From Eledone cirrhosa (lineage: Eukaryota), in NCBI GenBank assembly GCA_964016885.1, contig OZ024751.1:27776001-27840000 (forward strand): 64,000 nucleotides of DNA, written 5' to 3'. A program made the translations under genes and the position numbers. This document shows, piece after piece, positions 21,537 to 40,382 of the stretch (positions are counted from its first letter, which is position 1; the number at the start of each line of letters is the position of its first letter). A model generated the notes under the pieces. It worked only from the letters and a program-made list of their open reading frames with translations. It was not told the origin of the DNA and did not search any database.

Positions 21537-22371
21537 TATATATATATACACACATATCTCTCTCTCTATATATATACACATCTCTCTCTCTCTCTCTCTC
21601 TCTCTCTCTCTCTCTCTCTATATATATATATATATATATGCATATATATATATATATGCATATATATATATATATGCATATATATATATATATATGCATA
21701 TATATATATATATATGCATATATATATATATATATGCATATATATATATATATATGCATATCTATATATATATATGCATATCTATATATATATATGCATA
21801 TCTATATATATATATATGCATATCTATATATATATATATGCATATCTATATATATATATATGCATATATATATATATATGCATATATATATATATATATA
21901 TGCATATATATATATATATATATATATGTATATATATATATGTATATATATATATGCATATATATATATATATATATATGCATATATATATATATATATA
22001 TATGCATATATATATATATATATATATGCATATATATATATATATATATATGCATATATATATATATATATATATGCATATATATATATATATATATATA
22101 TGCATATATATATATATATATATATGCATATATATATATATATATATATATGCATATATATATATATATATATATGCATATATATATATATATATATATG
22201 CATATATATATATATATATATATGCATATATATATATATATATGTATATATATATATGCATATATATATATATATATATATGCATATATATATATATATA
22301 TATATATATACATATATATATATACATATATATATATATATATATACATATATATATATATATATACATAT
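21537..22371. repeat. Compound microsatellite: (CT)n then (TA)n punctuated by TGCA
   Basis: Read directly; TGCA interruptions about every 18-26 nt. Confidence 0.95.
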
Positions 22372-24452
22372 ATCATCATCATCATCATCATCATCAACGT
22401 TTAACGTCCGTGTTCCACGCTTGCATGGGTTTGGACGGGGGTAGTCCCACTTGAGGCAAGAGTGGTTGTCTTGCTCGCATAGGACTGTCTGGCAGGTTTT
22501 CTACAGTTGGATGCCCTTCCTAACACCAACCACATTTACAGTGTGGGTCTGGGAGGTTTTTACCGTGTTGCCTACATGGCCACATTACAGCGTGGACTGT
22601 GTGTTTTTTTGTCGTGACACCTACACGATCTCATTTGTTTCGGCCTGGATGGCGCGGCACCAACATAACTTTACATAGAACGGGTGGTGTGGATGGGGTG
22701 GGGGTGGTGGCGGGACGGGGTGTATTTTGTTAGAGATGCCTACTGGCAAGGCGGGTCTTCTCTGTTACTGAGTACCGCCAAAGGTCTCGGTCCAGTGACA
22801 TTGTCTTGGAGAGGTGAAAGTGTGTGAGGTCGGAGTTTATCAGCTCATCCCAGGTTTTTCTAGGTCTGCCTATTCCGTGGCTACCGTCTATCTTTATTGC
22901 CCTGCACTTTGTTATACAGCTATCGACTTTCATGCGCATCACGTGTCCATACCAACGTAGCCTTCTCTCGAGTAAACAACATCTGATCCCTCTTATCTCT
23001 AATTTTTTCCTTAGTTCGTTTATGCTTTGCCGTTCACGTATATTACTGTTACACATCCAGCGGAGCATGCAAGCTTCGTTCCTCTCTAGTCTGCGTATAT
23101 CCTCTGCACACAATGCCCAGGTCTCACTGCCATGCAACATTGCTGTTCGTATGCAGGCATCGTACAACCTGCCTTTCATTTTTAGGGAGAACCCTTTAGC
23201 AGCTAATAGTGGTATAAGCTCTCTGAACTTTTTCCAACCAGTTCTGACTCTAGCTACAGTACTTTCAGAGCACCCTCCGCCACTGCTGATTTTATCGCCC
23301 AGGTAACGGAAGCTGTCCACTATTTCTATAGAACCCTCTGCGCAATTGAAAGAGCTAGTATTTTGTGGGCACTTGCTGCTACTTATTGCACCAGAACACC
23401 GACCACATGTAAAATCTATGTTCTTAGTTAGCTTACCTGTGATCCCACTACATCTTTTATGCACCCATACTTTGCATTTAGGACATAAAATGGAGTTTCT
23501 ACCTACGCCTTTCCTACACACCGAGCACGACCATTTCCCAGAAGGGACCGCCGCCTTGTTTTCTTTCCTACAAACTAGAACTTTGGTCTTAGCCAGGTTA
23601 ATTTTAAGTCCTTTTGACTCTAGGCCGTGCTTCCATGTTTGGAATTTCTTCTCTAGCTCGGCCATTGATTCCGCTATGAGTGTCAGGTCGTCTGCGTATA
23701 GGAGTTCCCATGGGCAGCCTGTCTTGAACTCCTCTGTTATAGCCTGAAGGGCAATAATAAATAGTAGGGGGCTGAGAACAGAGCCCTGATGGACGCCAAC
23801 TTTTACGCTAAACTCTTCACTATATTCGTTGTTAATTCTAACCTTGCTAACTGTTTCTTTATACATGGCTTGTATAGCCCTCACAAGCCATTCGTCAACG
23901 CCTAGTTTTCTAAGAGCCCACCAGATAATGGAGCGGGGGACTCTGTCGAAGGCTTTCTCCAGGTCGACAAAAGCTAAGTAGAGGGGTTTACCTTTAGCTA
24001 GGTACTTCTCCTGTAGTTGTCGTACTATGAAAAGAGCGTCTGTGGTGCTTTTGCCTGACACAAACCCGAACTGCATTTCATCTAGGTCAATTCTCTCTCT
24101 GATTAGTTGCGCTATTACTTTTTCCGTGACCTTCATGACCTGGTCGATTAATTTAATGCCTCTATAGTTACTCCTATCTAGGGCGTCTCCTTTACCCTTA
24201 TAACAGTTAACGATGATGCTGCTATGCCAGTCCTTCGGAACAACCCCATTCTGTACGACTTGGTTAACTATGCGGGTGACCATGGTGTGTCCCACCGTGC
24301 CAGATGCCTTCAGCATCTCAGCAACTATTTCCGAAGGCCCAGCCGCCTTACCCGTCTTCATATCCTTGATTGCCTTACTTATTATACTCCCCTCGACTAA
24401 CACTGCTGGTCCCTCTATTGGGTCGATATGGGGGAGACTGTCTTTCTCCCAT
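22372..24452 (-). mobile_element. 5'-truncated RTE-clade LINE (family A) with 3'UTR and (TGA)n tail
   Basis: Open RT ORF, ~350-nt 3'UTR, tail ACGTTAAACGTTGATGATG; the 5' end runs into (TA)n. Confidence 0.95.
22730..24403 (-). CDS. RTE reverse transcriptase plus C-terminal region (557 aa, uninterrupted, lacks endonuclease)
   Basis: [46 protein letters not shown], Cys-rich insert [32 protein letters not shown]. Confidence 0.93.
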
Positions 24453-24916
24453 TTATTTATATATATTTATATATGTATATATATATATATATACATATAT
24501 ATATATATATATATACATATATATATATATATACATATATATATATATATATATATATACATATATATATATATATATATATATATATATATATATATAT
24601 ACATATATATATATATATATACATATATATATATATATATACATATATATATATATATATACATATATATATATATATATATATACATATATATATATAT
24701 ATATATACATATATATATATATATACATATATATATATATATACATATATATATATATATACATATATATATATATATACATATATATATATATATACAT
24801 ATATATATATATATATATACATATATATATATATATATACATATATATATATATATATATACATATATATATATATATATACATATATATATATATATAT
24901 ATGTATATATATATAT
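24453..24916. repeat. (TA)n array with CA interruptions
   Basis: Read directly. Confidence 0.95.
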
Positions 24917-38515: not shown

Positions 38516-39087
38516 TTATAATATTTCTACTTATTTCCATAACAATCTCATCCACTTGGTTTTAATATATTGATATCTCTAAATCATAATATCTATAACA
38601 TTTGCTATAATTCCATTTCTTAAAGTTTCATAAAATATATACGTATATAATTATAATTTAAAAAACAATTTTAATTTTAATAATTTTTATTTATTTAAAA
38701 TTACTTATCTCTTATAAATTATTTTTAAAAAAATGTTTTCAATATTTTTTCAATACATTTTCAATATTTTTTCAATACTGTATCAATATTTTTCAATAGA
38801 TTTATAACCACTAACTGATTCTGGCTAAATGATCTTTCAACATCTATACTTATTTTAACTAAATAGTCTCGCACTAACGAATAAATAAATTAAACCGGAG
38901 TTTTTTTCCGTACATTCCCATTTTAATTTAATTTAACTTAATATTTATTTACATTAAATACAAAACCAATATCCCTCATAACTCATTAGAACAATTAATT
39001 ATCTATAACATGATATACCCATCTATTTATTTATTTATTTATCTACTTATAACAGAAGAAAAATATATAAACAAATTTTAAACAAAT

Positions 39088-39268
39088 AATTATTTCTACT
39101 TTTGGCACAAGGCCAGCAATTACCCAGTGCAATACTAGTACTTTATTTTATCGACCCCGTAAGGATGAAAGGCAAAGTTAACCTCGGCGGGATTCGAACT
39201 CAGAATGGCAAGGGCTGTAACTCTATGCGTCAAAGCATAGCGTCCGACTCTCTACCGATATTGCCAAA
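39088..39268 (-). mobile_element. Nin-core SINE
   Basis: Reverse complement of the 4112 family. Confidence 0.85.
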
Positions 39269-40382
39269 TCGTAAATACACGTACTATTAAGATATATACT
39301 TAGAATATATTTCCCTCAAATTAACGTTATATGAGTTTTATTCATCTTCTCTTATTTTTTTCTTCTCTCTCTCTCTCTCTCTAGCACTATTTTATCCTCT
39401 CCTCCTACCTCTTCTCTCTCTCTCTCTCTCACTATTTTATCCTCTCCTCCTACCTCTTCTCTCTCTCTCTCTCTCTCCATAGTCGTTTAAATAAACGGTT
39501 GTTTTTCAATTATTTACACATTCATTTGCATATTCACACATAAGTTTGAAAAATCCCTAATATATTTCCACTATCCAGTGAATTTCCAACCGATAAGGTA
39601 TGATTTTCATGGGTATGTCTCTATTTATAAAACAAACTTTGTATTTCATCTGATGAAAGCGTATCAATGTGTCTTGATGAAATACCAATAAAGGCTGGAA
39701 GATCACTGATGAAGGACTAAATTTATTCATATGTAACCCATTTGCAACCACGCAGCACGCCATGTTTTCATATATATATATAAATATATATATATATATA
39801 TATATATATATATATATATATATATATAATACAATATGTAGAAAAGATAACACACCAGAGAGAGAGAGAGAGAGAGATAGTGCGCCATCAGCACATTAAC
39901 GACAGGGAAGAGCGAGTCTGTGGCTCCGTTAATTTATCGTGATCTATATATGTGTATATATAGAATATGTGTGTGTATATATATATATATATATATATGT
40001 GTATATATATATATAGTGCAAATTTATACGGGAATAAAACAGAGAGGCAGACAAATAAAGGTTTATTAGGTTCACGCTTTTGAGAGTGGGGGGGGGGGGT
40101 GTTGTGGTGGATACACACACACACATATATATATACACACACATATATATATACACACACATATATACACACACACACACATACATATATATATATACAC
40201 ACACATATATATATACACACACACATATATATATATATACACATATATTATATATAATAGATGTGTGTAAAAAGGCATATATATGTTTATTATACATAAA
40301 CATATACAAGTCTCGCTCTAAATCTATTACGAATTACGCTATGTTAGTGCTACTGCTATCACACACACACACATTATTATGA

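Follow-up and report, generated by a model that had tools for sequence, protein, structure and literature searches.

Architecture of the Locus

The stretch of DNA considered here (the window) comprises 64,000 nucleotides of the Eledone cirrhosa genome (assembly GCA_964016885.1, contig OZ024751.1, positions 27,776,001 to 27,840,000) and contains, at 21537-39770, a chain of eight distinct retroelement pieces, which belong to three RTE-type families within the long interspersed nuclear elements (LINEs), a CR1-type LINE, a short interspersed nuclear element (SINE) and a Penelope-like element. TA-based tracts make up 7,385 of the 18,234 bases of this chain, and such a tract is present at all 13 boundaries between 21537 and 39828. 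The original prediction, made from the letters and their open reading frames (ORFs), was right in the order, strands and family labels of the pieces it listed and in placing TA-based sequence at every junction; its list was correct as far as it went, but a second CR1 plus RTE-X unit had been overlooked. The labels RTE and CR1 follow from motifs and domain order and are presumably correct. From left to right the features are as follows (tracts have no strand; aa, amino acids; P0138 and P0008 are homologous proteins):

21537-22371, left TA tract with a TC run and TATGCA units
22372-24454, minus strand, RTE-A, 5'-truncated RTE-type LINE with reverse transcriptase (RT), PHD finger, 3' untranslated region (UTR), (ATG)n tail and natural 3' end
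24455-24917, TA tract from the 5' end of RTE-A to the 3'-most point of the RTE-B 5' piece
24918-26641, minus strand, RTE-B 5' piece, internal at either end (aa 245-814 of P0138)
26642-26837, TA/CA tract, left edge of a tandem duplicate
26838-27762, plus strand, CR1-type LINE piece, copy 1, 5'-truncated in RT (aa 681-988 of 1013)
27763-27850, TA/CA tract from CR1 to RTE-X-a
27851-28212, minus strand, RTE-X-a, copy 1, internal piece in inverted orientation (aa 628-747 of the 893-aa P0008)
28213-28270, TA tract between the 5' ends of RTE-X-a and RTE-X-b, copy 1, putative inversion junction
28271-28474, plus strand, RTE-X-b, copy 1, 3'-terminal piece ending at the stop codon (aa 827-892 of P0008)
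28475-28738, TA/CA tract, joint of the two tandem units
28739-29663, plus strand, CR1 of the second unit
29730-30091, minus strand, RTE-X-a of the second unit
30120-30323, plus strand, RTE-X-b of the second unit, after a 28-nt tract
30324-32486, 2.2-kb TA tract, CA-interrupted to the left and TG-interrupted to the right of about 31780
32487-33562, plus strand, RTE-B 3' piece with (ATG)n tail (aa 725-1066 of P0138)
33563-34269, two TA tracts flanking a 54-base piece
34270-34592, plus strand, SINE, the last 59 nt of which, including the (ATG)n tail, are identical to the RTE-B 3' end
34593-37161, 2.6-kb TA tract
37162-39768, plus strand, Penelope-like element, 5'-truncated in RT, coding part to 38500, right end putative
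39769-39828, right TA tract

The presence of TA at the element ends is above chance: a (TA)4 seed is found within 10 nt of every element end in the chain versus 2.8% of the positions outside it in a given direction. Across the window there are 66 tracts of (TA)5 or longer, and every tract of the chain shows its own internal pattern. In the tract at 30324-32486 the switch from CA to TG near 31780 results in a large imperfect palindrome. The idea that the ends of the complementary DNA (cDNA) always read into the CA-type strand was dropped because the polarity is inconsistent across tracts. The claim that the chain holds no unique DNA is nearly correct, the exceptions being 54 bases at 33938-33991, which apart from a single 12-mer do not recur in the window and are perhaps a remnant of the original host site, and the AT-rich stretch 38500-39768 with its nested SINE of a second family (39086-39267).

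Natural and Internal Ends

RTE-A, RTE-B and RTE-X show the features of the RTE clade, namely a single ORF with an apurinic/apyrimidinic endonuclease (APE) and RT, a short 3' UTR and a simple-repeat tail. RTE-A matches aa 499-1060 of P0138, a 1071-aa RT, APE and PHD homologue; this protein (for RTE-A and RTE-B) and P0008 (for RTE-X) both carry Exo_endo_phos and RVT_1, and the best named homologue of RTE-X-a is a protein from Octopus bimaculoides (74%). RTE-A, RTE-B 3' and the SINE all end in (ATG)n and then AT. Very short 3' UTRs, simple-repeat tails and tails shared with SINEs are likewise described for RTE LINEs and SINEs in general (PMC2887409, PMC6007223).

Natural 3' ends are found in four of the eight distinct pieces (RTE-A, RTE-B 3', the SINE and RTE-X-b, which ends at the last residue of its homologues). 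These four are inserts of the usual kind, 5'-truncated or full-length, each with a tail of its own; three pieces are tail-less, in a count that covers all pieces but the Penelope-like element. The elements had been described as ending internally on both sides, which is firmly the case for RTE-B 5' and RTE-X-a and probably for CR1, but not for the four with natural 3' ends. Judged from its relatives, the CR1 piece probably lacks its last codons, the stop and the tail: 92 of the 94 homologues aligned there (106 examined) continue for at least three residues.

The overlooked unit is part of a 1.9-kb tandem duplicate, in which CR1, RTE-X-a and RTE-X-b occur twice (26838-28474 and 28739-30323) with identities of 99.0, 98.1 and 98.7%, respectively. 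Over 1,489 nt there are 19 substitutions (3 synonymous, 6 at CpG) and no insertions or deletions. These are biological changes, and two molecules, either paralogues or haplotypes, must therefore carry the junctions that lie inside the unit; two haplotypes placed in a row are a less likely alternative to a real duplication. Both edges of the duplicate (26642-30323) lie in similar TA/CA tracts.

(TA)n as Probable Landing Site

RTE-X has a minimal tail and commonly adjoins (TA)n. The comparison with public runs, which covered 29722-30335 only (614 of the 18,234 bases), left out 30083-30129 (47 letters) at the TA junction of X-a and X-b and was made with 4 of the 24 listed runs, gave a (TA)n consensus for the loose ends behind 30330 in 148 (X15), 155 (X16) and 43 (X1) contigs, where X15 and X16 are one sample, the agreement with the consensus is 0.42-0.52, the counts have no denominator and the rows viewed are 24 of 1,045 loose-end rows. 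Behind RTE-X, 21 of the X16 contigs show a TAGA-like unit and then TA, and a 61%-identical relative (L001) has a stop codon followed by (TAGA)n. Since RTE-X copies commonly run from the stop codon into (TA)n, TA is the usual landing site of this family. In octopus RTE-2_OV a microsatellite begins at the ORF end (PMC9115989), matching the minimal tail of RTE-X, to which it is likened by description. Of 80 distant RTE-X-related loci in metagenomes 1 has (TA)6, and flanking by TA therefore does not extend across the lineage there. Among the loose-end rows viewed, none showed a copy truncated internally and continuing into TA, which counts neither way.

TA also adjoins elements outside the chain. 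For example, a young SINE copy at 15291-15391 (97%) has TA at both ends; in another, at 51432, TA lies at a distance of 8 nt from the truncated 5' end; and (TA)3 is found within 20 nt of 4 of 10 (ATG)n tails versus a background of 6.9%. Whatever inserts into a TA run is flanked by TA to its left and right, which renders its target-site duplication (TSD) invisible. Indeed, no TSDs can be seen, as had been noted, but this is uninformative because TA duplicated inside TA cannot be detected. Landing in TA and the hidden TSD together explain most junctions without a new mechanism. Taken as the frame alone, serial insertion into a (TA)n hotspot is highly probable. It had been put forward as an alternative to the capture of cDNA fragments at broken TA sites and, given the natural tails, RTE-X ending in (TA)n and the SINE at 15291-15391, it fits better than capture, which is not needed for most of the chain; the accompanying suggestion of TA synthesis at the joins may hold at the two putative inversion junctions considered next.

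Paired Inversions

Both RTE pieces without a 3' end are inverted, with their 3'-most point to the left, and both have a forward, tailed piece of the same family downstream. In the RTE-X pair aa 628-747 (minus) are followed by aa 827-892 (plus), 79 codons being missing (a gap of 237 nt), and in the RTE-B pair aa 245-814 (minus) are followed by aa 725-1066 (plus), so that the first 272 nt of the 3' piece overlap the 5' piece with 96.7% identity. Twin priming (model of Ostertag and Kazazian 2001, via PMC2912911, PMC4245944 and bioRxiv 2024.08.27.596794) gives just such an arrangement, an inverted internal segment ahead of a forward tailed segment of the same family, and twin-primed L1 inserts show a short overlap at the internally primed end. 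In the chain the corresponding overlaps with TA are 2 nt (AT) for RTE-X and 1 nt at the 3'-most end of RTE-B 5', which is too short to be told from chance.

Several observations argue for single inserts. A naive null for both pair layouts gives 0.054 x 0.139 = 0.0075. The remaining 46 kb of the window contain no further copy, at 90% identity or more, of either the RTE-B body or RTE-X. In contigs from the runs, joints between opposite strands tie X-a to X-b as members of a single family, and the second copies of X-a and X-b differ from the family majority at 6 of 360 and 4 of 204 sites, respectively (40 of 152 rows); being equally diverged, they appear to be of the same age. The divergence of the RTE-B overlap (3.3%) is higher than that of the tandem duplicate (1.3%), consistent with a nesting of the CR1 and RTE-X unit within RTE-B. 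The 9 differences in this overlap (3 synonymous and 6 not, 28% synonymous being expected) look neutral and would fit decay. RTE-B 5' and RTE-X-a probably represent, in flipped orientation, the front parts of single twin-primed inserts. Should each pair go back to a single insertion, the TA that separates the 5' ends cannot be leftover target and must have been added at the joining of the cDNAs. Such TA synthesis at the join, at the X-a/X-b junction and at the matching RTE-B junction, is possible. The full statement, that serial insertion into (TA)n was combined with two twin-primed RTE inserts carrying TA at the flip point, is put forward tentatively, as the likeliest of the readings but with a probability somewhat short of even.

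This does not mean that the pairs are ordinary products of twin priming, and a number of points weigh against the proposal. At L1 flip junctions deletions (66%) and duplications (17%) have medians of 14.5 and 22 nt (bioRxiv 2024.08.27.596794), which the 237-nt gap and the 272-nt overlap far exceed. Canonical flip points are direct or microhomology joins, whereas that of RTE-X carries 28-58 nt of TA; since the join thus differs, the pairs would work like twin priming without being canonical members. The two RTE-B pieces are separated by 5.8 kb plus TA tracts, and in cell assays 5' inversion was seen with hardly any element other than human L1 (PMC4245944). CR1 has lost its 3' end without a partner piece, so that 3' loss at this locus does not require twin priming, and with RTE-X being abundant and TA-seeking, two neighbouring copies are not far-fetched. 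With RTE-A as outgroup, the 6 amino-acid differences in the RTE-B overlap split 5:1 between the 5' piece and the 3' piece, a pattern expected of an older separate copy, although the split is not significant. Of the (ATG)n tails outside the chain 6 of 10 have no adjacent TA. The X-a/TA/X-b junction is spanned by no contig or read, 30083-30129 being outside the comparison. And the null of 0.0075 was set post hoc and ignores the instability of close inverted repeats.

An attempt to separate the ages of the RTE-B pieces through damage in conserved columns did not do so (14 of 204 for the 5' piece, 5 of 102 for the 3' piece, family-specific changes included), and among the best 120 of 1,625 relatives of RTE-B none is closer than 67%. 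The notion that the X-a/X-b junction is a built palindrome (TG..TA..CA) was rejected, because its TG and CA edges are largely element sequence.

Other Explanations

The close rival to twin priming, and a possible explanation although less probable than it, is that separate copies landed head-to-head and later lost their 3' parts by deletion from the fragile TA or inverted repeat, all TA being target. No new step is required, and most of what was just held against twin priming favours this account: the gap and overlap of ten times the L1 medians, the partnerless 3' loss of CR1, the abundance of TA-seeking RTE-X and the 5:1 split. End-trimming deletions are, moreover, known from the TA-linked SaTar arrays of plants (PMC5907723). 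It demands, however, two head-to-head pairs of the same family, each trimmed to within 80-90 codons of the start of its partner, which is the coincidence that the naive 0.0075 describes, and neither the lack of a young copy of either LINE body in the rest of the window nor the equal divergence of X-a and X-b fits it well.

Endonuclease-independent inserts are 3'-truncated and tail-less and have no TSD. In a second account TA hairpins break and the free TA ends prime, or take up any cDNA as filler. This would explain why three clades with different endonucleases (APE and GIY-YIG) are found at one site, why three pieces are tail-less and why the overlaps are 0-2 nt. Florendovirus DNA is thought to fill (TA)n breaks in plants (PMC4241990), and priming at ends that already exist has been given as the origin of 3'-truncated L1 inserts (bioRxiv 2024.12.14.628481). 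Four pieces, however, have intact tails at their natural 3' ends, ending in TA is a habit of the RTE-X family anyway, and the paired inverted and forward layout is not predicted, which makes filler capture improbable for the chain.

TA repeats read alike on both strands and a flip by recombination between TA tracts is therefore conceivable. Normal RTE inserts, internally broken and patched with TA, would in this case have had their TA-bounded front flipped, with the same geometry as result; the tandem duplicate does show exchange between tracts, and at 19352-19557 a perfect 42-nt inverted pair surrounds TA. The account is very improbable, in that it needs two additional events per element, leaves the 272-nt duplication at the break hard to obtain and still requires that TA was made inside an ORF. 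The inverted arms at 19352-19557, about 10 nt of which are TA, may be a very small inverted-repeat element or else the result of folding back at TA. A scan of the 66 tracts for surrounding inverted arms found none (null 19 of 4,266), the merging of tracts having made the scan miss this locus.

Mis-assembly, the remaining alternative named in the original prediction, would have chimeric pieces joined through TA tracts, and is barely credible: the 2.2- and 2.6-kb tracts are indeed hard to sequence and no junction-spanning read was seen (the junctions outside the duplicate being beyond the comparison), but two diverged copies share the CR1/X-a and X-a/X-b joins with biological differences (19 substitutions, 6 at CpG, no insertions or deletions), and each tract has its own internal pattern.

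A Mechanism Compatible with the Chain

If twin priming with TA at the flip point is accepted, the chain could have arisen in five steps. In the first, RTE tails ending in AT or ATA, of the (ATG)n or TAGA type, would anneal to a TA strand at a nick and start reverse transcription. A pairing of only 1-2 nt between tail and target is known for RTE elements (PMC2887409, PMC6007223). Each insert would leave behind two TA tracts able to grow and to be hit again. The second step would concern RTE-B and RTE-X only: here the other TA end would also prime, inside the same RNA and through an overlap of 1-2 nt, the outcome being an inverted internal piece ahead of the forward 3' piece. In the third, both cDNA ends would be joined via TA copied from the target; because (TA)n is its own complement, two TA-tailed ends can anneal. 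There are precedents for extra nucleotides at such ends: L1 occasionally acquires short inserts for which sequence within 15 bp of the site served as template (bioRxiv 2024.08.27.596794), and in zebrafish ZfL2-2 extra nucleotides are found at about half of the 5' junctions (PMC4245944). Templated copying in a TA target would then yield TA tails. In the fourth step the new tract within RTE-B would receive RTE-X and CR1, the latter likely primed a short way inside its 3' end, and in the fifth an unequal exchange between similar TA/CA tracts would likely have duplicated the 1.9-kb CR1 and RTE-X unit.

A more general version holds that cDNA ends, as they grow, regularly receive (TA)n tails copied from the target in octopus-type genomes, and that twin-primed RTE inserts thereby make new TA landing sites in a feedback loop. 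We consider it unlikely. If it were true, TA would be a universal sticky end, and retroelements would breed the TA microsatellites that attract them and build TA-linked arrays.

Comparison with Known Systems

In architecture the chain appears closest to the SaTar arrays of guayule, rice, sorghum and citrus (PMC5907723), in which unrelated elements are likewise linked by (TA)n, with no visible TSD and with end-trimming deletions. In the related case of MuTAnT from Medicago, occupied sites carry more TA than empty ones (PMC4486113). SaTar and MuTAnT are, however, plant Mutator-like DNA transposons that are never nested, whereas the chain consists of animal non-LTR retroelements (lacking long terminal repeats, LTRs) of three kinds, with inverted pieces and possible nesting inside RTE-B. 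All members being non-LTR retroelements, the chain cannot be assigned to SaTar on element type. The SaTar rule that no element interrupts another is true here if the RTE-B pieces are separate and false if they are one insert.

From twin-primed L1 the pairs differ in being of RTE type, in the size of the gap and overlap (237 and 272 nt), in TA at the flip and in the hidden TSD. The florendoviruses in (TA)n (PMC4241990) are likewise reverse-transcribed DNA flanked by TA, for which fragile TA hairpins are the proposed entry. In contrast to these and to endonuclease-independent L1, half of the chain pieces keep intact tails and encode their own endonuclease. Neither a (TA)n target nor chained arrays are described in the parts of the RTE literature covered (PMC2887409, PMC6007223). 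For O. vulgaris about 66% repeats, with 12.9% LINEs, 11.6% SINEs and hotspots of transposable elements, have been reported (PMC13282606). In the open-access literature we found no account of octopus LINE arrays linked by TA, nor of inversion junctions filled with TA.

The probable flipped front parts with TA at the flip point are the sole unusual feature of the chain. If serial insertion is all that happened, the chain is an animal retroelement version of the plant TA-linked arrays, which is useful and not surprising; for annotation it would mean that in octopus repeat ends are hidden in TA, families are split by TA, and assemblies and duplicates break at TA. If TA was made at the flip point, a source can be named for the many TA runs in this DNA, twin priming would extend to a non-L1 LINE of an invertebrate, and there would be a testable rule for the joining of LINE 5' ends. 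If, finally, the pairs are separate trimmed copies, all TA comes from the target and nothing is new.

SINEs, the Penelope-Like Element and Other Repeats

The SINE of the chain can be read as having a tRNA-like head, although there is no Rfam tRNA match to it; the Rfam matches in 33900-34620 score below gathering and were rejected as TA/CA artefacts. An exact pattern search in metagenomes for the tail common to the SINE and RTE-B gave 0 matches. The second SINE family has 11 matches in the window, among them a copy at 12858-13068 with an ordinary TSD of about 14 nt and copies at 14958 and 40502 that adjoin TA.

The coding part of the Penelope-like element (37163-38500) corresponds to aa 297-751 of a 759-aa relative, and the relatives covering it are 713-806 aa long. 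Its Pfam matches are weak: GIY-YIG has an E-value of 0.0024 in the window, which is below the cut-off, and among five relatives one matches GIY-YIG (E 0.012) and one RVT_1 (E 0.00085). Penelope-like elements encode RT and then GIY-YIG in a single ORF of about 700-800 aa and have a hammerhead ribozyme or a pseudo-LTR at their end. A check of 38400-39780 for a ribozyme, with E-values up to 1 allowed, gave no Rfam match.

At 11953-12450 two older RTE 3' pieces, one of them RTE-X-like, lie in a row with TA at their outer ends. Inverted repeats resembling hairpins or miniature inverted-repeat transposable elements, or MITEs, occur at 4799-4990, 19151-19268, 42143-42466, 11823-11929 (with a relative at 41178-41346) and 12424-12812; since several of the MITE-like repeats adjoin TA tracts, DNA-type elements may share the TA habit. 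A degenerate 5S rRNA copy at 60512-60633 (62.8 bits) is either a pseudogene or the head of a 5S-derived SINE.

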